From: Candidatus Lokiarchaeum ossiferum
Lineage (GTDB): Archaea; Asgardarchaeota; Lokiarchaeia; Sigyniarchaeales; Promethearchaeaceae
NCBI GenBank assembly: GCA_025839675.1
Contig: CP104013.1
Location: 5,610,001 to 5,642,000, forward strand
Direction of reading: 5' to 3'
Length of the DNA stretch: 32,000 bases
In this document: in pieces, positions 5,235 to 32,000 of the stretch
How positions within the stretch are numbered: the first letter of the stretch is position 1
Layout of the letters: each line of letters begins with the position of its first letter
The notes under the pieces: generated by a model
What the model was told of the DNA's origin: nothing
Databases searched by the model: none
What the model saw: the letters and a program-made list of their open reading frames with translations, nothing else
Translations under genes and position numbers: made by a program

Positions 5235-5969
5235 TTAAAGGTTCCAATTTTTCTTCTCCAAAGCAATTGATTTGTGGAAAGGAAGATTAAGAAGATTTTG
5301 ATTCTGGCGAACAAATTTCGCTCCGAATCCTTTTAGATCTATGAAGCGCCCTGAAGTTAATTTTACTTTACCTGAAGATAAGATTTTCGTTTCCGATTGC
5401 TGTATTGCTTGAATCACATTCCATGGTGTTTGAAATTCATCTAGTAACACTTTGGCTTTAATTTCACTTACTCCTATTAATCCCTCAATAAAATTCAGCT
5501 GCATCTTAAGACCTATTTCTAAAGAGGGGATGTCCAAGGGTTCGTATACAAACGGGTTATTTTTTTGTTGATATTTCGCAAAACTCCAGATCGTTTGCGC
5601 TGTTTCAAATTCATCAAGAGTTGTGATTAACGGAATGTTTTCTTTATAAAGAGCATAAATAATCGCTCCATAAATTGAAGCAGGCGCAATTCCGGTCCGA
5701 TCAAACATTTTTCCTGGATTTTCTAAAATAATAAGCGATTCTGGATAATAGTATTTCATTTTTTGGATTTGGGAAAAAAACCGATTATCACAGATCGATG
5801 CAACTAAATCGTCACCACGCTTGCGTTCGATCCCCATAGTTGATGAGATAAGGTAATCTGCTGTTTTCAAAGTTTCTATTTGAAGATTACATGGAATATT
5901 GCTAAAATTTCTCCGAATTTCTCCTCTTTCCCGCTCGTCCATAATAATGAGTGGCTTAAATGTTTCCAT
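5235..5969 (-). CDS. xpf: Short-form XPF/ERCC4-family structure-specific endonuclease (nuclease domain + HhH2), catalytic motifs intact
   Basis: LIIMDERERGE, TADYLIS and GIERKRGDDL (ERK at nt 5820-5828) match the ERCC4 GDXn-ERKX3D signature. The C-terminal part, GVSEIKAKVLLDEFQTPWNVI...LKGFGAKFVRQNQNLL, looks like tandem helix-hairpin-helix. Confidence 0.85.
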   Translation of the reverse strand: METFKPLIIMDERERGEIRRNFSNIPCNLQIETLKTADYLISSTMGIERKRGDDLVASICDNRFFSQIQKMKYYYPESLIILENPGKMFDRTGIAPASIYGAIIYALYKENIPLITTLDEFETAQTIWSFAKYQQKNNPFVYEPLDIPSLEIGLKMQLNFIEGLIGVSEIKAKVLLDEFQTPWNVIQAIQQSETKILSSGKVKLTSGRFIDLKGFGAKFVRQNQNLLNLPFHKSIALEKKNWNL

Positions 5970-5970
5970 T

Positions 5971-6189
5971 TCATTTCACCCTAGTTTTTGAAGAAAATAA
6001 ACATCCTAAAACAAGCAAAATGATTATTCCAACTTCATATGTGCCCATAAATGTCAGTGATCGAGTTGCCCATGTGATTTTTGAGTTAAAATAAATAGCA
6101 CCGAGGATGAATACACCAACAGTCAATATTTTTCCAAGATCAATACCTCTCCCCATAGGATTTTTTATTTTTAAGATATTTAAAATCAA
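5971..6189 (-). CDS. Small membrane protein with two predicted TM helices
   Basis: ILTVGVFILGAIYF and VGIIILLVLGCLFS are hydrophobic helices. Its stop lies 1 nt from the XPF start. The real start may be the internal MGRG. Confidence 0.45.
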   Translation of the reverse strand: MILNILKIKNPMGRGIDLGKILTVGVFILGAIYFNSKITWATRSLTFMGTYEVGIIILLVLGCLFSSKTRVK

Positions 6190-6265
6190 ATGGATTTAGG
6201 AAGATCTTAAAATTATGTTACTTCATTAAATTTGAATCATCAGTCTCGATAGACATAAAAATTAA

Positions 6266-8833
6266 TTAGCTCGCTAGAAACGTGTTTAATGATGTTTGAA
6301 ATCGTAAGGGTTGAATTTCTCCCGTAATTTCTTTTATTTTTTCCAACTTAATTTTCGATTTCTGAGCCACCTCTAACGAATTTTCATTGGTAATTTGAGA
6401 GGCTTTATGGTAGCCCGCTTGGAATAACTTTCGGGCATTATTGCGACTTAAATTAGATAAATTTTCAAATAAGTCGACCAATTCTTCTTTAACCCCATGT
6501 TTAAGACGAATTGACAAAATTTTGAGATCATGAACAAGATTTTTACAATTATCGAATATATCTGAATAAATATGCAAGTGGTTGGTTATCGATTCAAAAA
6601 TTGAAGCTTCTCGGGCTAAATCATTGGTTAATGAAAATAAATCTCCAAGGCCAAATTTAGGATGATTTGCAATTATAGATTCTACCGTGGTTTCCTCAAT
6701 CCATTTATTAGCAATGGACAGAATAGGAAGAGGATCGCGAGAATGATCAAAGCAATAGCTCATAATTATTTTATCTAACATAAAAGAAACCGAAGAAAAT
6801 GAATATTGGCAGAGTAAATTCTTTATTCGGATTATTTTATGAGGGAAAATATAGAGATTGATTGCAAGCTGTCCCAATTTTGTAGCAGTAAAACGATCAT
6901 TAGATTTTGTTATGGCAATTAATCCATGTTCTTCTAAGAAATCATAAATGGACTCATGTTGAACTATTAAAGGTATTATAAGTTTTAGGTATTTATAGGC
7001 GGGATGAACGGGATTTCCTAAAATATATTTCATCAATGTGGTTAAATGGGTGCAAAGAGTCGGTGAATTGATTAGATCATATCCCGCATTAAAATATTTT
7101 TTCATAGGATTACAACTGCATTGCATCCCCACATGAATATCAATCCTACAGTGATAACGATTTTTTATTATCTTTTTCTTCGATAAGGAACTGCTGATTG
7201 ATGCAATAATACTTTCTGGCGTGATTTTCGAAAAATCATAATTGAAACGAGTGATATCACAACTTGGAGCTCCAAATTGATCCAAAAAATAATCATAATT
7301 TAGGGAATCTACGGAAAAAAATTGCGATAATTCCAGGAAGGAACTTTTTTTGTATCCTTTTTGCAATTCCCCCGAATAAAGTTGAGATGCAAAAAAAGTT
7401 TTTTGAAGTAATTTTGAGATATCTTGTTTAGAAATACCAGGATTTTCATGAATTATAAGCAATACTAATTCTTGCAAAATGGGTCGATCTTTCAATTTTG
7501 AAGTAAGTTGCGCATATTTTGGTATCATTGTTCCATCATTTGCCACTTTTTCTTGAAAGTACTCCGATCTTACAAAATTTTTTTCTTCTTCATTTCGAAG
7601 CAGAATAATCCCCTTTCCTGCTTGATCATATCCCAATCGTCCCGCTCTTCCAAGCATTTGATGCAATTGGTTTGAAGAAAGGGGATGAAATACTCCAGAT
7701 GAAGTTAAACAATTTCGATAACCATCTTCCAAATAATCGGCATTAGATACTTCCCATGTTTTGCGATGTTGGACGATATCTGATATAATGGAAAAACGAG
7801 CAGGTGTGTTTACTCCTGCCGCAAGTGTTGACGTTGCAATTAATACCTTGATATTGTGCTCCTTATAAAGTTTTTCTACTATACGTCGGTCCAACACGCT
7901 TAAAGAAGCATTATGATATGCAATACCAAAGGGAATGACTTCTTTTAATACTGTTGCAACAGAACGGTTTGCTTTAAGATTTTTTACGCCTTTTATACAT
8001 TGATCTTTTTCAATATCTGATAAATAATTAACTACAACAGATTTCAGCAATTGGGTGAAATTTAAACAATCTTTGCGTCTATTGACAAAAACAATAACTT
8101 GTCCCTTTTCTTCCAAAGCAAACTTTACAATTCGTTTAATTTCTGAGAGTTTATTTTTGTAAATGCGAAATTCATAATCCAGCTTAATTGGTCTTTTTTT
8201 TGCATGTAATAATTGGAATCGTTTTCCAAAACTGCTCAACCATTTTGCAAAACTCTCATAATTTGCTATAGTGGCGCTTAAGCATATAACTTGGAGAAAG
8301 GACAATCTATCAAGAATTCGAGTAAGCAATATTTCTAAATGGGCTCCTCTTCGGGAAGATGAAATTTCATGAACTTCATCAATAACTAGCAATGATATCT
8401 TTTTTAAAATTGGATGATTTTGGCGAACCAAAGTATCGAATTTCTCGAAAGTTGTGATAATTAAATCAGCTCCTTCAATTATTCTATCTTCAGCCTCTGT
8501 ATCGGAGGTGATAGTTTTAACTAAAAAAGAATTTCCAATCTTTTCTTTGGTTAAGATCTGGGAAAAATGATATTTTTTTTCTGTTGCTAGAGCTTTGTAG
8601 GGTACTAAGTAGATTGTAACTCCTGATCCATTTAATAAATGCTTTGCAATAGCTAGCTCCGCAATTAATGTTTTACCTGATCCTGAAGGGGAACAAACTA
8701 AAAAATTTTGATTAAAAAACAATCCTCGTTGGATGGCTTCCGTTTGGATTGTATGAAGGCTCTTAATCTGCTGCACCTCCAAAAGTCTAATTAGAGATCT
8801 ATAGGGAACTATTTCGTTAATTTCAGTCATCAT
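6266..8833 (-). CDS. Ski2/Hel308-like DEVH-box SF2 helicase with an inserted SWIM-type zinc finger and a C-terminal HhH-like domain
   Basis: Motif I SPSGSGKT, motif II VIDEVHE, motif III LSAT, motif VI QMLGRAGRLG. The C-terminal LSRNNARKLFQAGYHKASQI resembles Hel308 domain 5. The ATGATG start overlaps the upstream stop (ATGA). Confidence 0.9.
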   Translation of the reverse strand: MMTEINEIVPYRSLIRLLEVQQIKSLHTIQTEAIQRGLFFNQNFLVCSPSGSGKTLIAELAIAKHLLNGSGVTIYLVPYKALATEKKYHFSQILTKEKIGNSFLVKTITSDTEAEDRIIEGADLIITTFEKFDTLVRQNHPILKKISLLVIDEVHEISSSRRGAHLEILLTRILDRLSFLQVICLSATIANYESFAKWLSSFGKRFQLLHAKKRPIKLDYEFRIYKNKLSEIKRIVKFALEEKGQVIVFVNRRKDCLNFTQLLKSVVVNYLSDIEKDQCIKGVKNLKANRSVATVLKEVIPFGIAYHNASLSVLDRRIVEKLYKEHNIKVLIATSTLAAGVNTPARFSIISDIVQHRKTWEVSNADYLEDGYRNCLTSSGVFHPLSSNQLHQMLGRAGRLGYDQAGKGIILLRNEEEKNFVRSEYFQEKVANDGTMIPKYAQLTSKLKDRPILQELVLLIIHENPGISKQDISKLLQKTFFASQLYSGELQKGYKKSSFLELSQFFSVDSLNYDYFLDQFGAPSCDITRFNYDFSKITPESIIASISSSLSKKKIIKNRYHCRIDIHVGMQCSCNPMKKYFNAGYDLINSPTLCTHLTTLMKYILGNPVHPAYKYLKLIIPLIVQHESIYDFLEEHGLIAITKSNDRFTATKLGQLAINLYIFPHKIIRIKNLLCQYSFSSVSFMLDKIIMSYCFDHSRDPLPILSIANKWIEETTVESIIANHPKFGLGDLFSLTNDLAREASIFESITNHLHIYSDIFDNCKNLVHDLKILSIRLKHGVKEELVDLFENLSNLSRNNARKLFQAGYHKASQITNENSLEVAQKSKIKLEKIKEITGEIQPLRFQTSLNTFLAS
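7046..7120 (-). other. SWIM zinc-finger signature (CxC-x19-CxH) inside the helicase
   Basis: Protein segment MQCSCNPMKKYFNAGYDLINSPTLCTHLTTLMKYIL. CSC is encoded at 7112-7120 and CTH at 7046-7054, followed by a helix-like stretch as in canonical SWIM. Confidence 0.6.
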
Positions 8834-9636
8834 TCCGCCTGGTATTTGTCCGGTTTAAAATTAGGTGTCATTATTAAAAAACGCCCTTGATCTAAAATAT
8901 ATCGGCGAGATTTTGAAACTCGCTGTAGTTGGGATTTTCCTTTAGATGTTCTTTTAATAATGTTTGAAAATGTTATTTCTCGTATCCATTTTTCTGGAGA
9001 ATATTGTGTGGATTTAAGCGATATCCAACTGCCTTGTAACATTTGGATAAAATCTGCATAATAGGGTACCTCACTATTATAAATTGGATTAAACGTTATA
9101 TGATGTATAAGAATTATCAAGAAGTTGCCTTTTGTTGTTAATGTTGAAATTTTTGGAAATAAAATATCACTAAAAGTGTGGACAGCATGAATATAGTCGG
9201 CATAATTAGAAACAGAACCAATTGTTGATTTCAAAATCCGAGAAAATGAATTTATGATTAATATTGGTCTTTCTTTCTTTACATTTTTATTCATTGGTAG
9301 AGATTCAATTAATTGAAATAAATCTTGGACGGATTGACATGAAAAATGATACATTCGTTCCAATAATGAATTTTTTGAGGAAAACATATTTTGAAGGATA
9401 CTTGGAGAAAGCCCACCTTCATTATCTGCGATATAAATGGGCTGAGTTGATATAGGTAAATGATATCGGATAAATTCTCGCAATAACGTAGATTTACCTG
9501 ATGCATTTTCCCCATTTATATGAATTATTGAAGGAAGTTCTTCCCGATATGAATGGGCAGACATCAATTTAATAAATCCATTAGTGTATGAAGGATTTTT
9601 CAGGGGTTTATTAAGTGCGGTGCTCTTTGAAATCAT
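8830..9636 (-). CDS. Divergent RecA/RadA-fold ATPase paralogue (RadB- or Rad51-paralogue-like core only, no N-terminal HhH domain)
   Basis: Walker A NGENASGKSTLL. IYIADNEGGLSP resembles RadA vvYIDTEgtF. The Walker B-like hydrophobic strand is PILIINSFSRIL, and FLIILIHHITFNP resembles the vvvTNQV strand. Confidence 0.6.
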   Translation of the reverse strand: MISKSTALNKPLKNPSYTNGFIKLMSAHSYREELPSIIHINGENASGKSTLLREFIRYHLPISTQPIYIADNEGGLSPSILQNMFSSKNSLLERMYHFSCQSVQDLFQLIESLPMNKNVKKERPILIINSFSRILKSTIGSVSNYADYIHAVHTFSDILFPKISTLTTKGNFLIILIHHITFNPIYNSEVPYYADFIQMLQGSWISLKSTQYSPEKWIREITFSNIIKRTSKGKSQLQRVSKSRRYILDQGRFLIMTPNFKPDKYQAE

Positions 9637-9650
9637 AAGTAATCGTTTCC

Positions 9651-10055
9651 TTAATTTTGTGTGCTCGCAGAGTATAATAATTCTGATCTTTGTTCACTTT
9701 TGAGTAAATTTCTTGATATATCCTGAGTATTAGTTTTTCCTGGTAATAATTCAAAGAGTGTCTCGATAATAGCTGCTTTTATTATATTATCTTCGATCAA
9801 TTCTTTGGAATTCAAGTGTTTAAGTCGCTTTACGTGGATTCTTGTATAACTTGAAATTTCCTTATGCATCCGTGTAAATTCGTTAATTAAATAAATTAAG
9901 AAATCATCTTCTTCCAATATTCCTTTGCTAAGCTGGGATACTTTCTCTCGAAGTTCTGCTCGATTCTTCTTTATGGTCTTTGAGATCTGAGATTCCAGCT
10001 CTAAACAATCTTGCTCTGTCATAAACTTGACCTTGAAAGATATTAAAAAAATCAA
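9651..10055 (-). CDS. Hypothetical small helical/coiled-coil protein
   Basis: 134-aa ORF wedged between radA and the RecA-fold paralogue. The listed start overlaps the radA stop by 4 nt, and an alternative start is MTEQD at about 10022. No motif recognised. Confidence 0.5.
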   Translation of the reverse strand: MIFLISFKVKFMTEQDCLELESQISKTIKKNRAELREKVSQLSKGILEEDDFLIYLINEFTRMHKEISSYTRIHVKRLKHLNSKELIEDNIIKAAIIETLFELLPGKTNTQDISRNLLKSEQRSELLYSASTQN

Positions 10056-11212
10056 GCTAAGGGATCTGCAATTCCTTTAGCCTTTTTCGCTTGCGATTTT
10101 TTTGTTGCGGGTTTCCTTGATGTGCTTTTTTTTTTTTTGGAAGACGTGCTTTTCTTTACTTTCACTGGGTCTTTTTCCAGCTTTTCAGTGGCGATTAATA
10201 AGTTCTCTTCTTCGTTCAAATCCGCAAGTGTCTTAAGTTCGCCTTCTTCCATGTATGTAATCGTTTCATCGTCGCTTATCCCCGCTTCTGTAATGTAAAA
10301 TACAGCAGATTCAGGTGGTAAATCCGGAGCATCAACGACTGTTGCAGTCCGTTCTAAACTCGAATTTGATTGAAATCCTTTTGTTTTAAAAACTATTCTG
10401 AAATGGCATCCATGGGCAACAATATTTCCTCCGATTGCTTCGTTTGACGCAAAGGAGCCTTTCATTTGAACCCCAACTTGATTGGTGACTAATACTGCTA
10501 TATTATGTGTCTCCGCAATTCTCGATAGATCATGAATCAATTTGTTCAAAACTTGTTGACGGGCAGCAAGCATCCCAATTCCGATGTATTCTGATCTCAT
10601 TAGAGCCATTAGCGAGTCAACAATAATGAGTTTCGCATTTTTCTCTTTTATTGCTTGTTCTGCCGCTCTTATCATTTGGAGTTGGTGATCCGTGGAAAAA
10701 ATCCTTGCGTGGTAGATATTTTGAAGTGTAGATGTAGGATCCAACCCAAAACGTTTAGAAATCCGTTCTACTTTAGTCCGTGAAAAAGTATTCTCCGTAT
10801 CAATGAATAAAACTGAGCCATCCAAACCGCCTTTTGATTTTGGGAGTTGACAAGTGACACACAAAGTATGGGATAGGTTCGTTTTTCCGCTTTTGAATGC
10901 TCCATAGACTTCAGTAATGCGACCAGTGGAGATTCCCCCATTCAAAATATTATCAAAATTTTGACTGCCTGTAGTACAATATTCAAAATTTTCTTCAATC
11001 GTTGATACTTGCTTAAATGTCGCCAGATTAAGACTGTCTCTTGCATTCCAGACTAAATTTTTGGATGCTTTTGCAGAGATTCCGTCAATTTCTTCTAAAT
11101 CTTTAGGTACACTCATAGCTAGAGCTTCAAGTGAATCGATACCAGATTCGGTGAGTAGTTTGATTTGACGGGGTTTGATGGATTTTAGAGCTAATAATTC
11201 CAATTTAATCAA
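10052..11212 (-). CDS. radA: RadA/Rad51-family recombinase with an extra C-terminal acidic-then-lysine-rich tail
   Basis: N-terminal HhH region (IKLLTESGIDSLEALAMSVPKDLEEIDGISAKAS), Walker A GAFKSGKT, HTLCVTCQLP, VLFIDTENTF, Walker B LIIVDSLMAL, VLVTNQV and ITEAGI are all present. The only in-frame start is TTG at 11212, with a stop two codons upstream. Confidence 0.95.
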   Translation of the reverse strand: MIKLELLALKSIKPRQIKLLTESGIDSLEALAMSVPKDLEEIDGISAKASKNLVWNARDSLNLATFKQVSTIEENFEYCTTGSQNFDNILNGGISTGRITEVYGAFKSGKTNLSHTLCVTCQLPKSKGGLDGSVLFIDTENTFSRTKVERISKRFGLDPTSTLQNIYHARIFSTDHQLQMIRAAEQAIKEKNAKLIIVDSLMALMRSEYIGIGMLAARQQVLNKLIHDLSRIAETHNIAVLVTNQVGVQMKGSFASNEAIGGNIVAHGCHFRIVFKTKGFQSNSSLERTATVVDAPDLPPESAVFYITEAGISDDETITYMEEGELKTLADLNEEENLLIATEKLEKDPVKVKKSTSSKKKKSTSRKPATKKSQAKKAKGIADPLA

Positions 11213-11277
11213 TTTTTATTAAATTAAGACTATTTAAAGTCGAAAAAAGAAAATCACAAAAACCGGTTCAAAAGATT

Positions 11278-11721
11278 TTATCCTTCTGCAGAAAATTCAG
11301 CAAGGATTTTTGAATTATTGAAACATTTCATTTTTCCTGTAAATTCTTTTAAATCTTCTGCATGAATCGCTAAAAAATGTTCACGTAAATTGTTTAAATA
11401 ATAATTTATTTTTAGTTCAGAAGTGGACACTGAGGAACGACAGATAAAAATCAAATCAGGATTCGAATTGTGAAGAAGAGATAGCTTGAAAGATGCCATT
11501 GTTATGTTTTGACACTTTTCTATAAATATATCTGTGGCAAAGCTTGTTATCGCAGAGACGAATCCTGCAAACAAATCTCCATTTATATCTCGAATGTGTG
11601 CTGAATGGAGCAAAGGGATCCCAGTTTTGGTCATGATCCAGATTTCTTTAACAAATTTTGGAGGTTTCATTGGAAATTGTTTCCTTTTAATAGTATGGTT
11701 TGGAAGATATTGCTTCCTCAT
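11278..11721 (-). CDS. Longin/Roadblock-like small regulatory-fold protein (tentative)
   Basis: The pattern runs strand (IWIMTKTGIPLL), helix (GDLFAGFVSAITSFATDIF), strands (ITMASFKLSLLHN, LIFICRSS), helix (ELKINYYLNNLREHF). This is typical of the longin/Roadblock alpha-beta sandwich. The likely start is MKPPKF at about 11670, which avoids overlap with the upstream ORF. Confidence 0.45.
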   Translation of the reverse strand: MRKQYLPNHTIKRKQFPMKPPKFVKEIWIMTKTGIPLLHSAHIRDINGDLFAGFVSAITSFATDIFIEKCQNITMASFKLSLLHNSNPDLIFICRSSVSTSELKINYYLNNLREHFLAIHAEDLKEFTGKMKCFNNSKILAEFSAEG

Positions 11722-12016
11722 TCTGTGATACTTTAGTTAATCCTTGATCTTCAAGATAACTTGGATTATCGGATTTAGGCGAGTAAAATTGATAATTCTC
11801 GATTAGTTGAGCAATTACAATGGAGAGTTTTTCAACATTTTGATTAATTTGATGCAGTTCTCGAACCTTTGCTTTTGATGAATGATTGGATCTTTTCATA
11901 AATTTACGGGAAAACCAGATTATCGCTAAGATCACTCCAAGTGTGGGGTATTTTCGAAATAATAAGACCAATGCAATAACAATAAAAGCAAACCCCAGTT
12001 GTTTAAAAATTCTCAT
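11687..12016 (-). CDS. Small membrane protein (N-terminal hairpin of two TM helices)
   Basis: LGFAFIVIALVLLF and LGVILAIIWF are followed by a polar tail. Confidence 0.5.
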   Translation of the reverse strand: MRIFKQLGFAFIVIALVLLFRKYPTLGVILAIIWFSRKFMKRSNHSSKAKVRELHQINQNVEKLSIVIAQLIENYQFYSPKSDNPSYLEDQGLTKVSQNEEAISSKPYY

Positions 12017-12666: not shown

Positions 12667-13278
12667 TTAAGTCAGTTTCCTTCTTAACACCTCTACTAAT
12701 AAATCAGAAAAAATTCGAGATACATCGCCCGGATTTTTAGTGTCATTGGCTGTAGATTCATAGGGTATTTTCAATAGTTTTGTTGGATTCTGAGTTGGCA
12801 ATCCCATTTGTGTAACAAACTCATTGATTGATATTGCATTGGGAAGATCTCGTTTATTTAGCAAGATATAAATTGGAATTTGTGATTTTTGAGAAAAAGA
12901 CTTCAATTCTTCGAAAGATCGACAATTTGAAGCCATTTTCTTTGGATCAGAGTCTGCCACAAAAACTGCTCCATCGGCATTTTCAAGTACATATTCTCGA
13001 GTCGCTAGAAAACGTTCTTGTCCCGTAGTGGTTGATACTATCGCTTGCACAACACAATTTATACTCGGGAATTGAAATTCGAAAGTCACACTATCACACC
13101 AGAGTGTTCGTTTATCTGTGGTTTCTATAGAAATTCCTTTACTCACCAATTTGGTAGCAAATTTTCGTTTTAAACATTCAAAATTTGTGGTTTTTCCTAC
13201 TTCTCCCGGACCCCAATACATGATTTTAATTGGGATGTATTTTGGTTTGAAAATTGGTTGGGTGTCAAGATCTTCCAT
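12667..13278 (-). CDS. mglA: MglA-family small Ras-like GTPase
   Basis: G1 is GPGEVGKTT and G4 is LNKRDLPNA. G3 is TTGQE, with Thr replacing the usual Asp of DxxGQ, the known MglA hallmark. Several blocks parallel Myxococcus MglA as I remember it: KIVYYGPGLCGKTTN, TVPGQ, VDGVVFVADS, YNKRDLPNA. Confidence 0.85.
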   Translation of the reverse strand: MEDLDTQPIFKPKYIPIKIMYWGPGEVGKTTNFECLKRKFATKLVSKGISIETTDKRTLWCDSVTFEFQFPSINCVVQAIVSTTTGQERFLATREYVLENADGAVFVADSDPKKMASNCRSFEELKSFSQKSQIPIYILLNKRDLPNAISINEFVTQMGLPTQNPTKLLKIPYESTANDTKNPGDVSRIFSDLLVEVLRRKLT

Positions 13279-20235: not shown

Positions 20236-21015
20236 ATGGGTTATTTCATTTATTTAGTGTTATTGTTTCCTTTGCGAAGGTTCCTTTCCAGAGTTCTTGA
20301 GTTAGTGGGCCATTTCATTCCTCCCTTATTAACAATCAGCTTGAAACTGGATCAATTTTCTACAATTTTTCACGAAATATGTCACTATGGGATGAATAAA
20401 CTTATGTTCATACCAGTATCCTTGGAAGATATTTCTTTTTCCGATAATTTACAAAGTGGATCTGTGAGAATCAACTATGATACCGCAACTCATTATCGAT
20501 TTTCTTTGATGAAGTGTTTTCTTATTTCTCTTGCGCCATTATTTATCGGGACTTGGATAGTTTTATTTTTGGTGAGCAAATGGGATGGAACATCCCTTGG
20601 GGGGAAAATTGGGCTTGGACTCGCCATTTGTTGTCTCATACTTGGATTACAGCCTTCAAATGCAGATATCAAATGCATTTACATTTATGGGGTAACAAAA
20701 AGACCATGGCTTGCCTTACGACAAGTAATCTGTATGGGGCTGGCCTCTTTGTTTTATTTGTGGCAAGCTGATTTTTTCATGCAATTCTATGTTTTAGTTC
20801 CAATTCTATTTGAAATTACAGTGATTTTAGCAATTTTTATTCTGTTAGATCTAATATGTTATGGATTAGATGAAGTTCTCCGTTTTCTGAAGAATAGAAC
20901 AATACAAATGACGTTCAATCGAAGCTTGCATATTCGAAAATATAAAATACCTCTCTTTGCAAAACCTGTCATAAAGCAAAGTAGAATGAATAATTTGCAG
21001 GAGAACTCGCAATGA
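20236..21015 (+). CDS. Polytopic membrane protein with an HExxH motif (DUF3267/M50B-like putative zincin peptidase)
   Basis: HEICH is encoded at 20371-20385, just after the first hydrophobic segment. About five TM helices are present. The gene starts 3 nt after the upstream stop and overlaps the downstream gene by ATGA. Confidence 0.65.
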   Translation: MGYFIYLVLLFPLRRFLSRVLELVGHFIPPLLTISLKLDQFSTIFHEICHYGMNKLMFIPVSLEDISFSDNLQSGSVRINYDTATHYRFSLMKCFLISLAPLFIGTWIVLFLVSKWDGTSLGGKIGLGLAICCLILGLQPSNADIKCIYIYGVTKRPWLALRQVICMGLASLFYLWQADFFMQFYVLVPILFEITVILAIFILLDLICYGLDEVLRFLKNRTIQMTFNRSLHIRKYKIPLFAKPVIKQSRMNNLQENSQ

Positions 21016-21779
21016 GTCAAGTTTATTATCCGAGGTGGAAACTTCCTTGGAATTTACCCACTTTTTCCGTACAATTACCTTTTCTTGCAATGAAATTGAA
21101 CTGTCGGGTGATAAATTATCGCTCCGATGAAACCTTTCATTTACACTACTTGAAAGAAAAGATGCTAGTAGTCGAGATTAGTCCTACCTGCGGTGTTCTC
21201 ATTATTGATCCGCAAGCGTTACCCTTGGAATTTAGTGAGATCCCTATTTTTAAAGATCGAATTGAAGCATTCATGGAAGAATATTCTTTTTCTTTAGTGA
21301 TATGGCAAGGATACCAAAATTCTTTAACTCAAATGGCAAAAAATCTTCCCAAAATTGCTTTAGCCTTGCGCGGGATGTTAATGCGTCATGTTCTTACCTA
21401 TCACCAAGCCATGATTCCTACTCGTCATTTAGAAGATACCGCCTTATGTCTACGAAGTTTAGCAAAACGAGTCCAGATTGTTGATAATCCTCCATCAAAC
21501 TCACGAATAAAAGCCAAAGCACGAAGGTTGTATGATGCACAGCAGACATTAATAGAAGGGTTTTGCCTTATGGGATTAAAAAAATTTAAGCTTTTAAGTA
21601 CCGAGTTTCAATTTCCTTTTGAAATCATGGAAGAAATACGTTCTTCAGAGCTACTATACACACGCACGGGGAATCCCAAAGGTATAACTGGAAGATTAAA
21701 GAATATCAAGTTATTTGATTTTGAATTCATTCGCCAAAATCAGATATTACTAACTAAAAATAATACTTTGGATAACTAG
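21012..21779 (+). CDS. Catalytically inactive XPF/ERCC4 paralogue (nuclease-like domain + HhH2-like C-terminus)
   Basis: By-eye alignment to the XPF at 5235-5969 gives three matched blocks (XPF first): IPLITTLDEFETAQTIWSFAK vs QAMIPTRHLEDTALCLRSLAK; QLNFIEGLIGVSEIKAKVLLDEFQ vs QQTLIEGFCLMGLKKFKLLSTEFQ; FGAKFVRQNQNLL vs FDFEFIRQNQILL. The catalytic positions are replaced: ERK becomes EIS at 21174-21182, DERE becomes FSVQ, and ADY becomes LHY. Confidence 0.75.
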   Translation: MSQVYYPRWKLPWNLPTFSVQLPFLAMKLNCRVINYRSDETFHLHYLKEKMLVVEISPTCGVLIIDPQALPLEFSEIPIFKDRIEAFMEEYSFSLVIWQGYQNSLTQMAKNLPKIALALRGMLMRHVLTYHQAMIPTRHLEDTALCLRSLAKRVQIVDNPPSNSRIKAKARRLYDAQQTLIEGFCLMGLKKFKLLSTEFQFPFEIMEEIRSSELLYTRTGNPKGITGRLKNIKLFDFEFIRQNQILLTKNNTLDN

Positions 21780-27632: not shown

Positions 27633-29783
27633 TCAAAAGTGATCTTTGGCAAATTTCTTAAGAATCGTCCGGATTTTAATATGTAAAGTTGCAATATCCT
27701 TGAATAAAACTAAGTTGATCTGCAGCAAATCTCTAAACTCTTTAACTCTCTGTGCCAATAATTTCTGTTCTTCAGGTAGAATATTAGAAATATCTAAAAA
27801 TATTAAATATTTGTTCACAGAAATCTGTTTATTTTTAATACTTTTCAAAAATAAAAAATTATTTGCATCAATTTCAATTTCCGAGGCATTTAGGATGTCG
27901 AATCCAATTTTGACTTTCTTCGCGGAAATATATATGTCAAATTCACTTGATTTTAAAATTAAACCAAAATTTAGAGATAAAGATGATTCCAACTCATAAA
28001 GATCATTCACCTCTGGGGATATTTGAATCGAATGAGTTTTATTGCTTCTAATCTTGTTTTCCTTTACTTCAGATAGTGAAGTAATTTCTTTTGAATATAA
28101 AATAGGTAATTTTCCATTTAATTTCTTAGAGACTTGTTTAGCCTTTATTTTTGAATCCAAAACTGGTTTAATCTCAAATTTTTTTTTGAATTGATCCTTT
28201 TTTCGTTTCGCAATTAAGTGATTCCGTTCATCCGATGTTCCAATAGTATAAAGATAAATTACCTTTCCTTTTCCCGATCTTCCAGTTCTACCTGCTCGTT
28301 GAATTAATTGTATTACTGATGCTGAATTATCAAAAAAGACCACTACATTGCATTCTGCAATATCAAGACCTTCTTCTGCGACATTGGTTGCAATCAATAC
28401 ATTGTATTTTCCTGATTTGAAGTCATTGGTCAATTTTATTTGATCCTTTTGTTTAAGCCCCTCATCTCCCTTTTTTGATGCTTGTCCCACAAATTTTTGT
28501 GGACGACAGTGGGGGATAGATCTAATTTTTTTAAGGATACTCTTTATAGTAGCTCGTAATTTAACAAAAATTAGAATACGACTGCTAGAATTATCTTCAA
28601 ATTGTGATTTTAAAATTGATCGCAACTGAATTATCTTTGGATGTTCCAATAATTTTGGGTTTTGATATTTTTCAATCTGTAATGCTTGGTAAATTTGTGA
28701 GATCTGTATTTCTGAACTTAAAAATCGATCAGCCATTGATGCTTTACCCTTTTGGATTTTTTCATACATTTTTTCGAGTGTATTTAGCACCACTTCCAAT
28801 CCTTGGGATTCCAGATCATTTATTAATTTAAGGATTTTCATAAGCCGTGCATTTGTAGAAATTAAAATACGAAGTTCCCTCTCATTAACGCCTTCTTTTT
28901 TTAATGCTGATGGGAGGGATTTCATTTTGTCGGCACAAAAACCTAAGTGGTATAAATTTGGGTTAGTTGGAGCAGATGAATCGTAATTTAATAGAAGTTC
29001 CATATATCCTGCCACTGTGTGATTTTTTAGTTCAACAAGGCTTGAATGAACTTTCATCATAAAAGGGCTCATCTGAACTCCAATATCAATTTCCTCTTTA
29101 TCAAAAGTGTACTGTTGTACTTCTGCGTGTTTTAGATCACGAAATTCAATATTATTCTTTGAAATGTGCAAATTTTCCATTATTTCTAACTGCTTTTTAT
29201 TAGAAGATCCAGGAGATGCGGTGAGAGCCATAATCCTTCCTTGAATATTTTCTTTAACATAATGATCCGCTATACTACAATAAGCATAATTTCCAGAAGC
29301 TCTATGCGCTTCATCAAAAATAATTAGATCTACCTTAGATAGTGTATATAACTTATTTTCGAGATCATTTCGGAGAGTTTGCGGGGTCATAAAAAGAATT
29401 TTACCAATTTTTAATTGAAAAACTTCCTGACGTTTTGTTGGCTTTATTTGCCCTGTTAGTTGCAATAATGAGATCTTTTCAGTATCGAGAATTTCAATGT
29501 GCGATTGATAATGTTGATTGATTAATGGTCGCGTAGGTGCAAGAAATATAATTGTGGGATTGGGATATGATGGATTGGTTAAAAAATGTAGCATTGTTAA
29601 AGTTCCAATAAAGGTCTTACCTAACCCCGTTGGAATAACTACCATGAGATTTTCTTTAAAGGCACGGTCAGATATTTTAATTTGATATTCACGTGGATTT
29701 ATTTTCTCGTTTTTCAAATATGGGATAAATTGAGAGTGTAATTTGGTTTTTGGATTGGTTGGAGTCAGAGCTTGTTGAATCAT
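27633..29783 (-). CDS. Hef/FANCM/Mph1-family DEAH helicase with a degenerate ERCC4-like C-terminal domain
   Basis: REYQ, motif I PTGLGKT, motif II IIFDEAHRA, motif III LTASPG, and motif V/VI VLIATNVAEEGLDI...QRAGRTGR. A long helical insertion lies between the RecA lobes, as in Hef. See the separate feature for the C-terminus. Confidence 0.9.
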   Translation of the reverse strand: MIQQALTPTNPKTKLHSQFIPYLKNEKINPREYQIKISDRAFKENLMVVIPTGLGKTFIGTLTMLHFLTNPSYPNPTIIFLAPTRPLINQHYQSHIEILDTEKISLLQLTGQIKPTKRQEVFQLKIGKILFMTPQTLRNDLENKLYTLSKVDLIIFDEAHRASGNYAYCSIADHYVKENIQGRIMALTASPGSSNKKQLEIMENLHISKNNIEFRDLKHAEVQQYTFDKEEIDIGVQMSPFMMKVHSSLVELKNHTVAGYMELLLNYDSSAPTNPNLYHLGFCADKMKSLPSALKKEGVNERELRILISTNARLMKILKLINDLESQGLEVVLNTLEKMYEKIQKGKASMADRFLSSEIQISQIYQALQIEKYQNPKLLEHPKIIQLRSILKSQFEDNSSSRILIFVKLRATIKSILKKIRSIPHCRPQKFVGQASKKGDEGLKQKDQIKLTNDFKSGKYNVLIATNVAEEGLDIAECNVVVFFDNSASVIQLIQRAGRTGRSGKGKVIYLYTIGTSDERNHLIAKRKKDQFKKKFEIKPVLDSKIKAKQVSKKLNGKLPILYSKEITSLSEVKENKIRSNKTHSIQISPEVNDLYELESSLSLNFGLILKSSEFDIYISAKKVKIGFDILNASEIEIDANNFLFLKSIKNKQISVNKYLIFLDISNILPEEQKLLAQRVKEFRDLLQINLVLFKDIATLHIKIRTILKKFAKDHF
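27636..28028 (-). other. ERCC4-nuclease-like domain lacking catalytic residues (C-terminus of the Hef/FANCM-like helicase)
   Basis: I threaded this by eye on the Pyrococcus Hef nuclease domain as I remember it. IQISPEV sits against VVVDSRE. SEFDIYIS sits against VGDYIIS. VKIGFDILNASEI sits against VAIERKSANDFIQSI. NKYLIFLDIS sits against RPIMIVEGS. INLVLFKDIATLHIKIRTILKK sits against VPIIFSSTPEETAQYIFLIAKR. No HhH2 follows. Confidence 0.5.
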
Positions 29784-29857: not shown

Positions 29858-32000
29858 ATGGAAAGGAAACCAAATACATTTCCAAGATTTGATCCGATTG
29901 CATTAGAAGGTAAAACTCTAAGACCTAAGCAAAAGAAAGCTTTTACTTTACTTGAACAAGGTCAAAACGTTGTTGCAAATTTCGAGATGGGATATGGTAA
30001 GACCTTCCTAGCTTTAAAGTTAGCACAACTAATGAAAGATAAAGGAAAAAAATTTATAATGGGTGTCCCCCTTCGGGCCGTCGCTTCACAAATGTTTGAT
30101 GTTTTTTTTAAATATTTTAATGTTCTAATTGTTTCAGGGGATCACGTTGAAAATAAAACAAAAATCCTAGATCCTGATTTTGACGGCTATATTATGACAT
30201 ATGAAATGATGCTTCAATATTTAATCAAAGAACGGCAACGTCAGATATTATTTGACAATATTGGCGCATTCATTATCGATGAGGTTCATATTATGGTTTC
30301 AGGAAGACGGGGTGCCACAATTGAATCGAATATCATGCTTGTTCAATATTTTTATCCTCACATCCAACAGTTATTATTATCGGCTACAATTCAAAATAGC
30401 AAGGAATTTGCAACACATTTTAAATGTTGCCTTGTAAAAACAATTCCTGAAGAACGTCCTGTTAAACTTATTAAAAAAATAATCACTCGTCCTGTTTTTT
30501 CAAGAATGGATGAGGAATATGAACAAATCACTGAAGATATTAAAGAAATAATCATAAAACATACTACTCCTTCTGCAAATTTTCCTGGAATGCTCGTATT
30601 TTGTAATGCTCGGTTACTTTCAAAAAAGCTTGCTAGCGAGCTAAACAAACACTTTTCTCACATCCAAGCAGAATATCACAATGCCTCACTTAGTTTGAAA
30701 AAGCGAAAGGCTGTTGAGCAAGCTTTTTCAAATCAAGATATTAATGTTATTTGTTGTACTCCGACTTTGGCAATGGGAATAAACCTTCCCTCAGCAATTT
30801 GTGTTCTTACAAGTGTTCGTCGTCGTTCTGGTCTTCTAAATGAAAAAATATTTCTCGATTCTAATGAAATCATCCAAATGGCCGGAAGGGCTGGTCGTCC
30901 GGGTCAAAAAGGTAATCTCATCAAAACCAAAAATGGAATTACTCAAGAATACGGGATTTCTTATACTATGTGTGAATATACCGACTATGAGGAAGTAGAG
31001 ATTATGATCAATACTCCAGTTAAAATTTGCAGTCAAATTCCAGACTTCATGAAATGGATGTTATTAACATGGATTGTGGCCGGGATATCTCAAAAAGTAA
31101 AATTAAAAAAAATTTACTCTCAAATTTTTGTATCATCGGTTGATTTCATTAAATTTAAGCAAGAATTCTCTTGGTTGGTTGAAAAAAACTTCATTTCTGT
31201 TGATCCGATGGGCCAAATCATTGCGAGTCATAAAGCTCGCATGACTGCTTTCTTTGGAATTAAGTGTGAAACTGCTTTACATTTTCAGTATATTCGGGAA
31301 TGTTTGAAACAAGAATTTTGGGCTGGAAAAATAAAATCGATACATCCAGCAACACTTTTTTGTTTACTTTTAGCATGTGAAGAATTTACTTCGAATATAA
31401 GAACGTCTGAGAAAAATGATATTGCATCAATCACGACAGCCAATAATTTTTGTGATAATTCTTATATCTACCATCTTTTGGGTGAAACGAAATTCCAACG
31501 ATCACAAAATGAAGCTGTAAAAAAGGGCTTTTCTATCACTTATGATAATTATTTACAGCAGAGATATTTAGAAAACTCATCTCCTGATAAAAATGAACAA
31601 GTAATTTTCAAAAAATTTGATATTGGTGACAAAGTTCAAGTTCAGACAATTGCTGCTCGTTTATTAACTGCAGCTCATGCAATTTTGGGGACATCTTGGA
31701 TATTTGGAAAAATTTTACGAGAACTTACCGATGGTATGAGTTTTTCGATGGCATGTTTTGATTCAGATGTAATCGATCTTATGAAAATAAACAATGTTGG
31801 TCCACGAAAAGCCATATTAATCGTAGAAGCAAAAATAAAATCACGAGCACAATTTTATCGCTGTGATACACATTCACTTTATTACAGCATTAAAAAAATT
31901 GTGCATCACCGAAACGAACGGGTAAAAATTCTTCAGAATCATTTTTCCGAAAAAAGGGATTTATGGAAAAGTGTTTCCGAAAAAAGTTTGGAAAAACTTA
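29858..32000 (+). CDS. Second Ski2/Hel308/Brr2-like DEVH helicase (3' end runs off the window)
   Basis: Absent from the ORF track because there is no stop in the window. My translation from ATG 29858 begins MERKPNTFPRFDPIALEGKTLRPKQKKAF. Motif I is EMGYGKT, motif II IIDEVHIM, motif III LLSATIQ, and motif VI QMAGRAGRPGQKG. The later INNVGPRKAILIVEAKIKS is HhH-like. The frame is open for 714 codons to the window end. Confidence 0.9.
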   Translation, partial: MERKPNTFPRFDPIALEGKTLRPKQKKAFTLLEQGQNVVANFEMGYGKTFLALKLAQLMKDKGKKFIMGVPLRAVASQMFDVFFKYFNVLIVSGDHVENKTKILDPDFDGYIMTYEMMLQYLIKERQRQILFDNIGAFIIDEVHIMVSGRRGATIESNIMLVQYFYPHIQQLLLSATIQNSKEFATHFKCCLVKTIPEERPVKLIKKIITRPVFSRMDEEYEQITEDIKEIIIKHTTPSANFPGMLVFCNARLLSKKLASELNKHFSHIQAEYHNASLSLKKRKAVEQAFSNQDINVICCTPTLAMGINLPSAICVLTSVRRRSGLLNEKIFLDSNEIIQMAGRAGRPGQKGNLIKTKNGITQEYGISYTMCEYTDYEEVEIMINTPVKICSQIPDFMKWMLLTWIVAGISQKVKLKKIYSQIFVSSVDFIKFKQEFSWLVEKNFISVDPMGQIIASHKARMTAFFGIKCETALHFQYIRECLKQEFWAGKIKSIHPATLFCLLLACEEFTSNIRTSEKNDIASITTANNFCDNSYIYHLLGETKFQRSQNEAVKKGFSITYDNYLQQRYLENSSPDKNEQVIFKKFDIGDKVQVQTIAARLLTAAHAILGTSWIFGKILRELTDGMSFSMACFDSDVIDLMKINNVGPRKAILIVEAKIKSRAQFYRCDTHSLYYSIKKIVHHRNERVKILQNHFSEKRDLWKSVSEKSLEKL

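Follow-up and report, generated by a model that had tools for sequence, protein, structure and literature searches.

The subject of this study is a cluster of six minus-strand genes in a stretch of 32,000 nucleotides (nt) of the Candidatus Lokiarchaeum ossiferum genome (contig CP104013.1, positions 5,610,001 to 5,642,000; the whole stretch is hereafter called the window, and positions are counted from its first letter). The genes encode the recombinase RadA, a helical protein of 123 amino acids (aa) designated p123, a RadB-like paralogue of RadA, a Hel308-type helicase, a 61-aa peptide and a short XPF nuclease. Comparison with related genomes shows that the conserved core of the cluster is a triad consisting of p123, the RadB-like paralogue and the Hel308-type helicase, and that XPF is a recent addition. 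The gene arrangement is real, conserved and previously undescribed, and it includes one new small protein family, that of p123; our literature search found no paper describing a RadA-p123-paralogue-Hel308 cluster. On balance, and with some reserve, we favour the view that this is a recombination cluster of two units, in which the triad would constitute a RadA-filament accessory module tying the paralogue to the Hel308 helicase.

Conservation of gene order

Contigs carrying relatives of the paralogue, together with 62 RadA loci from species-representative Promethearchaeota genomes, were compared (numbers with the prefix L denote the compared contigs and loci). The string p123-paralogue-helicase was found on nine independent contigs, namely the window, L001, L002, L004, L006, L007, P. 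syntrophicum MK-D1 (L052), L075 and L078. Across these nine, the identity of the paralogue falls to approximately 24%, and stops and starts of adjacent genes often overlap or are closely spaced. The radA gene lies directly upstream of the triad in five of the nine (the window, L002, L004, L006 and L078), and p123 was never seen apart from the paralogue at the loci compared. The full six-gene order is repeated in L002, and L001 agrees with it over the visible part. A first-pass annotation of the window, made from the letters and the open reading frames (ORFs) by themselves, had proposed a single module of six genes and had named synteny among relatives as a check on this proposal. The order is indeed conserved, but this applies to p123, paralogue and helicase in the vicinity of radA and not to all six genes as a string.

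The type of C-terminal tail carried by RadA co-varies with the presence of the triad. RadA proteins linked to the triad carry a tail rich in Lys that includes a DPL motif, which is mostly located at the very C-terminus (DPLA or DPLESL); in the L078 protein, the DPL motif comes before the Lys-rich stretch. Linkage among these gene families is also seen in other Lokiarchaeia. At 32 of the 62 loci, a 230-245-aa member of the paralogue family is located upstream of radA on the same strand, 24 of these within 1.5 kb. The linkages found in distant Lokiarchaeia are different, with radA followed by a helicase in L042 and a paralogue followed by a helicase in L012. The L012 string (L012:9216-13513) lies 3-7 kb downstream of radA and consists of an 849-aa helicase whose N-terminus appears Hef-like by eye, a RadB-like paralogue, a 100-aa Cys-rich protein and a Hel308-like helicase.

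The plainest explanation of such an arrangement is that the genes are mere neighbours, that is, housekeeping repair genes clustered by shared regulation or drift, each keeping its usual separate role and p123 being unrelated to them. Every recognisable protein in the cluster has a well-known stand-alone role (strand exchange, mediation, fork repair or flap cutting), the arrangements differ between lineages, promoter-like elements stand at several internal positions in the relatives, and the window contains further repair genes (a Hef-type helicase and an ERCC4-like ORF), which suggests loose clustering. It is difficult to reconcile this explanation with a triad order that is held on nine contigs at such low paralogue identities, with the constant company of p123 and the paralogue, or with the co-variation of the RadA tail. 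In addition, three different arrangements tie the helicase to either radA or the paralogue, as is typical of functional partners. We therefore consider mere neighbourhood unlikely.

Gene calls, junctions and probable transcription units

The six same-strand ORFs described in the first-pass annotation are all real. Each is present in the ORF listing of the window where it had been placed, and the public calls for the same genome (CP163304.1, 6.27 Mb) agree, with 383 aa for RadA followed by 123, 268, 854/855, 61 or 72, and 244 aa. The p123 protein and the 268-aa paralogue are 100% identical to the L. ossiferum proteins NEF87_004781 and NEF87_004780, respectively. The identities originally given to RadA, the RecA-fold paralogue, the Hel308-type helicase and XPF were essentially right, as judged by profile and fold searches. 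Rfam and tRNA scans of the window revealed no non-coding RNA. The features of the cluster are listed in Table 1.

Minimal or overlapping junctions had been claimed for the whole string, and this holds for part of it. The ATGA at 8830-8833 is common to the paralogue stop and the helicase start, and the stop codon of the peptide (5971-5973) lies 1 nt away from the ATG of XPF at 5969. The spacing is wider between radA and p123 (29 nt) and between the helicase and the peptide (109 nt to the ATG). The reported 4-nt overlap of radA with the next gene at 10052-10055 proved to be an artefact of ORF calling, because it needs translation to begin at 10055, on a TTG that is not conserved as a start, while all homologues and the public annotation use the ATG at 10022. 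With this conserved ATG, the small helical protein has 123 aa and not the 134 aa first assigned to it. The start of radA, which had been placed at 11212, is most likely the TTG at 11203 (383 aa), where homologues begin with ATG-GAA-TTA. The 29-nt spacer between radA and p123 contains a conserved T-run and an AGG-type Shine-Dalgarno-like motif, and Shine-Dalgarno-like motifs precede the internal cistrons. Directly following the radA stop, the T-run may attenuate transcription and thereby lower the expression of the downstream genes.

The first-pass annotation had also recorded a single TATA-like box, upstream of radA. The conserved block that precedes radA, TTTCG[A/G]CTTTAAATA, is shared by the window, L002, L006 and L004, and its MK-D1 version is TTTCGGCTTTATAAAT. 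A second box is present, however: the octamer TTTAAATA is found again, unchanged and on the same strand, before the peptide gene at 6177-6184, within the 15-nt block TTTGATTTTAAATAT. This block is conserved in three genomes (the window, L001 and L002), whereas the remainder of the spacer is not conserved. The frequency of the octamer in the window is at the chance level (12 found vs 10 expected); therefore, the argument for a second promoter is drawn from position and conservation alone. In MK-D1, the triad has its own element, TTCGATATTAAATAC, 20 nt before the p123 ATG, and conserved promoter-like blocks precede p123 in both MK-D1 and L007.

Given the second conserved element, which resembles a transcription factor B recognition element (BRE) joined to a TATA box, the cluster is probably organised as two adjacent transcription units rather than one. 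The transcripts that we infer from the conserved promoter-like elements and the gene layout are as follows. Unit 1 would begin at the conserved BRE/TATA element and proceed through radA, the T-run, p123 and the paralogue to the Hel308-type helicase, the last three genes having Shine-Dalgarno-type or overlapping starts. Unit 2 would have its own promoter-like element and carry the 61-aa peptide, with XPF coupled 1 nt downstream.

This picture differs from that of the first-pass annotation, in which one promoter served a translationally coupled six-gene module for strand exchange, mediation and resolution, complete with a small protein of the Swi5, Sfr1, Hop2 or Mnd1 kind. Some of that model stands: the six genes share one strand with short gaps, the ATGA and 1-nt junctions are there, and the order recurs in L002 and in the visible part of L001. 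The conserved promoter-like block and the 109-nt gap before the peptide and XPF argue against it, as do the artefactual nature of the radA/p123 overlap, the absence of XPF from the cluster in L004 and MK-D1, the separation of radA from the triad in MK-D1 and L010, and a p123 family that has neither a Pfam match to Swi5, Sfr1, Hop2 or Mnd1 nor a significant fold match. The unit that is conserved is the triad, and one fully coupled six-gene operon of this kind seems to us quite improbable.

Table 1. Features of the radA cluster, with coordinates in the window
Feature	Position	Strand	Remarks
radA promoter-like element, BRE-like TTTCGAC and TATA TTTAAATA	11231..11245	-	27 nt upstream of the conserved start
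radA	10052..11203 (longest ORF from 11212)	-	Helix-hairpin-helix domain, Rad51 core, Lys-rich tail ending in DPLA
T7 run directly after the radA stop	10045..10051	-	Possible partial terminator/attenuator; T-run kept at this position in five loci
p123; α-hairpin, disordered tail, C-terminal L[LI][YQ]x[ATC] motif	9651..10022	-	Family without known relatives
RadB-like RecA/Rad51-fold paralogue, 268 aa	8830..9636	-	Walker A GENASGKST; DNE corresponds to RadA DTE; Walker B Asn (IINSF)
Hel308-type Ski2-like helicase, 855 aa	6266..8833	-	NCBIfam models, PDB matches, domain 4-5 profile
Insertion of ~130 aa in the helicase winged-helix domain	6953..7378	-	About aa 486-627; seen against P. furiosus Hjm 2ZJ2
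Motif C-x9-CSC-x19-26-CxH inside the helicase insertion	7046-7150 (aa 562-596)	-	Invariant Cys/His
Second promoter-like element TTTGATTTTAAATAT	6176..6190	-	20 nt upstream of the peptide ATG (6156)
Peptide of 61 aa, two hydrophobic helices	5971..6156	-	72 aa from TTG 6189, inside the promoter-like block
Short XPF/Hef-type nuclease, ERCC4 and (HhH)2 domains, 244 aa	5235..5969	-	GGTGA Shine-Dalgarno-like motif upstream

The p123 family

Homologues of p123 were restricted to the Lokiarchaeum/Promethearchaeum lineage in both single-sequence and profile searches. In the AlphaFold2 (AF2) model of p123 (predicted local distance difference test score [pLDDT], 76; predicted template modelling score [pTM], 0.47), two helices span residues 3-32 and 38-92, and the tail from 97 to 123 is disordered. 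This tail consists of a variable linker followed by the motif L[LI][YQ]x[ATC], which is kept across the family and reads LLYSA in the window. A Pfam scan of nine family members at E-values (E) up to 10 gave no relevant family, Swi5, Sfr1, Hop2 and Mnd1 included. The profile search of the Protein Data Bank (PDB) gave 0 matches, and a Foldseek search with the AF2 model returned generic helical hairpins only (best E, 1.7). The analogy with Swi5, Sfr1, Hop2 and Mnd1 suggested in the first-pass annotation, for which neither profile nor fold searches of the family gave anything significant, was therefore dropped. A mediator or adaptor role for p123 is plausible from its genomic context and its conserved C-terminal motif alone.

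The tail of p123 is similar to the part of the RadA linker that surrounds the polymerisation motif; MK-D1, for example, has FKQVSEIVE in RadA and LYRASEIE in p123. Because of this resemblance, we propose that the Φ-x-x-A-type tail of p123, short as the motif is, could dock where the polymerisation motif binds, in the pocket of either RadA or the paralogue.

The RadB-like paralogue

The paralogue has a RecA/Rad51 fold and is RadB-like, yet it lies far below the RadB cut-off. Its AF2 model (pLDDT, 87.9; pTM, 0.86) consists of a single RecA-like α/β domain with no N-terminal domain. The best Foldseek matches of this model were human RAD51D, RAD51C and XRCC2 in the BCDX2 complex (E, 8e-11), followed by RAD51, DMC1 and RadA. 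When compared with RadA by hhalign, a 31-sequence alignment of the paralogue gave a probability of 96% (E, 2e-9), and a shallow five-sequence alignment gave a probability of 5%. Against the RadB model TIGR02237, the paralogue scored 17.4 bits, and the equivalog threshold (TIGR02237/NF006861; cut-off, 172.4 bits) is not reached. The paralogues located upstream of radA in other Lokiarchaeia match RadB at ~1e-10, with 30-40 bits.

An exhaustive profile search recovered 73 representative relatives of the paralogue. The Walker A sequence GENASGKST is invariant. The Walker B residue is Asn in the window paralogue and its four closest relatives, most members of the wider family having Asp. Since the Walker B Asp is replaced by Asn, the paralogue would be expected to bind ATP and to hydrolyse it poorly, and the repeated loss of this acid suggests that ATP hydrolysis is dispensable. 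RadB is a mediator of RadA, which it binds and whose polymerisation it promotes (PMC5480776). Like RadB and the human RAD51 paralogues, the L. ossiferum paralogue would bind or cap RadA filaments.

The Hel308-type helicase and its zinc-motif insertion

The helicase motor was identified by Pfam (DEAD, 5e-29; Helicase_C, 3e-10) and by PDB matches to Hel308/Hjm at 1e-54 to 1e-58; the PDB matches include ASCC3, Brr2 and Hel308. The protein matches the NCBIfam Hel308-type models at 1e-95 to 3e-79 but falls below all the Hel308 equivalog cut-offs (321.6, 267 and 265 bits vs 887, 1200 and 1216). A profile built from the C-terminal half aligned with 2ZJ2, 2VA8, 9B15 and 2P6R (E, 2-5e-7). These matches, to Hel308/Hjm and the Pol-theta helicase, cover the end of domain 4 and domain 5, and the strand motif of the winged helix aligns weakly in the same profile. 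By these profiles, the helicase is predicted to carry Hel308 domains 1-5.

Inside the insertion that interrupts the winged-helix domain, C562, C572, C574, C594 and H596 are invariant in six helicase homologues with identities down to 22%, the last spacer of the motif varying from 19 to 26 residues. The motif satisfies the SWIM signature CxCxnCxH (PF04434). Pfam searches at E up to 10 with the C-terminal part of the helicase, the excised lobe and the six homologous lobes gave no SWIM match, and the PDB profile search of the lobe matched no solved SWIM protein or Shu2. The Shu2/SWS1 family has an extended motif, CXC...CXHXXA, with an invariant Ala (PMC6316741); in the six helicase homologues this position is not conserved and is occupied by T, A, L, E, F or M. 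Of the "SWIM helicase" announced in the first-pass annotation, the Hel308-type motor and the CxC...CxH insertion are borne out, and the SWIM profile match is missing. We interpret the insertion as a SWIM-like, putative zinc-binding lobe, with which the helicase would represent a new Hel308 domain architecture. No paper was found in the literature that pairs SWIM with Hel308 in the sense of a zinc-motif helicase. A metagenome scan with the C-terminal half of the helicase recovered three loci only, one of them a duplicate.

A second Ski2/Hel308-like helicase is encoded on the plus strand at 29858-32000 and is cut by the end of the window; its match to the Hel308 models is weaker than that of the cluster helicase.

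RadA and its gene neighbourhood

The ATPase core of RadA was confirmed by Pfam (Rad51, 1.3e-75), and the N-terminal helix-hairpin-helix (HhH) was recognised at residues 5-59 (HHH_5, 5e-06). Among the NCBIfam models, the RadA score was 315.9 bits for NF003301, above the cut-off of 259, and 282 bits for TIGR02236, below the cut-off of 361. Across its relatives, RadA is 73-86% identical, the start and the C-terminal tail are conserved, and the DPLA ending is invariant. In the linker, the polymerisation motif reads FKQV, with Val replacing the Ala of the FxxA that most other Lokiarchaeial RadAs have. Most other Lokiarchaeial RadAs (L013-L070) carry an extra C-terminal helix-hairpin-helix (…VKGIGKGTAENL…) in place of the Lys-rich/DPL tail.

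At eight RadA loci of other Promethearchaeota metagenome-assembled genomes, radA is broken after ...AIGGN by a 31-nt insert, a length that is not a multiple of 3. The insert is located at L054:8778-8808 and at the same codon in L055, L057, L058, L059, L060, L061 and L065; it is not present in the window. Both ORF halves are intact, and AAAT is repeated at both junctions. The insert folds as a helix, which is supported by compensatory changes (five pairs changed on both sides), and a canonical bulge-helix-bulge motif could not be drawn at the eight loci. The insert could be a mini-intron in the mRNA or a programmed recoding site.

Upstream of radA, a gene for a small Ras/Arf/Roc-like GTPase is found in the window (12667-13278, minus strand; 1.4 kb away) and in L078 (L078:2091-2711; 1.3 kb away). 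A 109-aa membrane protein encoded at 11687-12016 of the window resembles, by eye, the product of a 109-aa ORF upstream of radA in MK-D1.

The peptide, the XPF nuclease and other repair genes of the window

The 61-aa peptide is conserved in L001 and L002 at both the DNA and the protein level, and protein-family scans gave no family match for it. This predicted two-helix membrane peptide is translationally coupled to a soluble nuclease, XPF, a puzzling combination.

XPF was matched by Pfam ERCC4 (2e-20), and its residues 5-201 matched positions 570-765, the nuclease part, of the NCBIfam Hef model (E, 1.5e-31). The best PDB match was the P. furiosus Hef nuclease (E, 4e-17). In the alignment with the Hef nuclease 1J22, DERE, ADY and ERKRGDD stand at equivalent positions, and Ala replaces the Gly of GDXnERKX3D. 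The C-terminal (HhH)2 domain is present, Aeropyrum XPF aligns to residue 190, and the C-terminus reads …FHKSIALEKKNWNL. With its catalytic residues intact, this ERCC4 nuclease is predicted to be an active flap/fork nuclease.

A 716-aa Hef/FANCM-type helicase encoded at 27633-29783 (minus strand) matches the Hef model over positions 8-545 of 781 (E, 3e-124), that is, over the helicase part only. Hef thus appears to be split in L. ossiferum, the helicase gene lying ~22 kb from the Hef-like nuclease XPF. A 255-aa ORF at 21012-21779 (plus strand) has weak ERCC4 similarity (XPF profile, E 9e-11; NCBIfam Hef, 2.5e-07). Three closely packed plus-strand genes without family end with this ORF, in which the ERK catalytic motif was not seen. 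Its product may be a catalytically inactive partner for XPF, like ERCC1 or FAAP24.

In the closest relative, an IS110-family transposase gene lies directly downstream of XPF (L001:5332-6891), which suggests that this end of the cluster is a rearrangement point. This transposase and the many neighbouring ORFs without family would be in keeping with an origin of the cluster in a mobile element, a virus or a defence island with recombination genes of its own. We rejected such an origin, which we hold to be extremely improbable. The paralogue and the C-terminal half of the helicase had no relatives among 2.9 million viral contigs, the genes flanking the cluster are also syntenic among relatives, and the base composition is even throughout the window. 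RadA, moreover, shows the high identity among relatives, the conserved promoter-like element and the score above an equivalog cut-off described earlier.

Proposed function of the triad

Since the triad persists across divergent contigs, since its linkage to radA recurs, though variably, and since the RadA tail co-varies with it, we suggest that the products of the triad act together on RadA filaments, perhaps as a physical complex. In the proposed mechanism, the paralogue would engage the RadA filament and p123 would serve as an α-hairpin adaptor, its tail occupying the pocket on either RadA or the paralogue. The helicase would in this way reach RadA-coated single-stranded DNA, D-loops or stalled forks, where it would clear, unwind or anneal strands.

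A number of observations weigh against this interpretation. At the level of gene order, an opposite-strand gene stands between radA and the triad in MK-D1, and radA is likewise uncoupled from the triad in L010. The window, L001 and L002 are alone in having XPF after the helicase; in L004, a FEN1/XPG gene on the other strand is found there instead. The paralogue-helicase junction is not always tight, the gap in L004 being 327 nt with a TATA-like box of its own. With regard to p123, the confidence of the model is only moderate, as its pTM and the six sequences underlying it indicate; the known polymerisation motif has Phe where the p123 motif has Leu/Ile, and the likeness between the p123 tail and the RadA linker may be coincidence. 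As for the helicase, the SWIM assignment comes from the motif, with no Pfam or PDB profile behind it, and the cluster helicase is not the sole Ski2-like helicase nearby.

Whether a module of this kind would promote or restrain recombination is a separate matter, and the sequences fit either direction. In the restraining version, the paralogue and p123 would aim the helicase at RadA filaments or D-loops, which the helicase would dismantle, so that tracts are limited. In Haloferax, recombination is reported to be suppressed by Hel308, and gene-conversion tracts become longer when HELQ is lost, as they do when RAD51 paralogues are lost (PMC13623763); the tight link between paralogue and helicase would also suit a targeting role. 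RadB and the eukaryotic paralogues, on the other hand, are mainly positive mediators (PMC5480776; PMC6316741), and nothing in the sequences separates a positive from a negative effect. We rate restraint as rather unlikely, while noting that it has real points in its favour.

Comparison with known systems

Taken singly, the proteins have close counterparts. The helicase shares the Ski2-like motor, the winged helix and the ratchet/helix-loop-helix domains 4-5 with archaeal Hel308/Hjm. It differs from them in scoring 267-322 bits against equivalog cut-offs of 887-1216, in its ~130-aa zinc-motif insertion and in its operon-like linkage to a RadA paralogue. XPF has in common with Hef and the short archaeal XPF proteins an ERCC4 nuclease with D...ERK...D and HhH2, the Pyrococcus Hef nuclease domain being the best match. 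Unlike Hef, it has no fused helicase, the nuclease-less Hef-type helicase being encoded at a distance, and it is co-encoded with a membrane peptide. The euryarchaeal pair of RadA and RadB likewise combines a full-length RadA with a short paralogue that has the RecA core only, and the wider family of the L. ossiferum paralogue weakly matches RadB. The L. ossiferum paralogue, however, scores 17 against 172 bits, has lost the Walker B Asp and is always paired with p123 and the helicase, a pairing that has not been described for RadB.

Two eukaryotic systems combine elements found in the triad. Human HELQ binds the BCDX2 paralogue complex (PMC13623763), which brings together a Hel308-family helicase and RAD51 paralogues, and the model of the L. 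ossiferum paralogue is nearest to RAD51D, RAD51C and XRCC2. The differences are that the association in L. ossiferum is known from adjacent, partly overlapping genes, that one paralogue stands in place of four, and that the zinc-motif lobe is absent from the Hel308 structures aligned. The Shu complex, composed of Shu2/SWS1 and SWSAP1-type paralogues, combines a CxC...CxH motif with a highly divergent RAD51-type paralogue (PMC6316741, PMC5727457). In L. ossiferum, this motif is part of a helicase and does not form a small protein of its own, the Ala of CXHXXA varies, profile searches showed no similarity to SWIM or Shu2, and the link to the paralogue is known from gene adjacency and overlap alone. 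Archaeal orthologues of Shu2/SWS1 were claimed by Godin et al. (2015), as cited in PMC5727457; this claim is given here at second hand.

We judge the HELQ parallel to be the stronger of the two, because a Hel308-family helicase is combined with a paralogue of RAD51D/XRCC2-like fold. The Shu parallel is weaker because the defining Ala fails and profile support is lacking; it is a lead rather than a sign of membership. Going further, one could imagine a stable complex of p123, the paralogue and the helicase, with the zinc lobe as the paralogue-binding surface and with p123 holding RadA by a BRC-repeat-like mimic of the polymerisation motif, so that the complex would be a counterpart, and possibly a forerunner, of both HELQ-BCDX2 and Shu. 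In this extended form the proposal is doubtful.

Significance

The operon picture of this locus is corrected from one unit to a probable two. The adjacency of radA and the triad suggests that a helicase-paralogue partnership of the HELQ type already exists in archaea. If the products of the triad interact, such a partnership would predate eukaryotes, and the occurrence of a CxC…CxH motif together with a divergent paralogue would become relevant to how the Shu complex arose. Contact between archaeal Hel308 and RadA is said to lack "clear data" in a 2026 review (PMC13623763), and direct cooperation of archaeal Hel308 with RadA or its paralogues has yet to be settled. The triad, coming from the closest cultured relatives of eukaryotes, offers a test set for such cooperation, in which the proteins are marked by defined motifs: the RAD51D/XRCC2-like paralogue, the Hel308-type helicase and its additional putative zinc lobe, and the p123 family.

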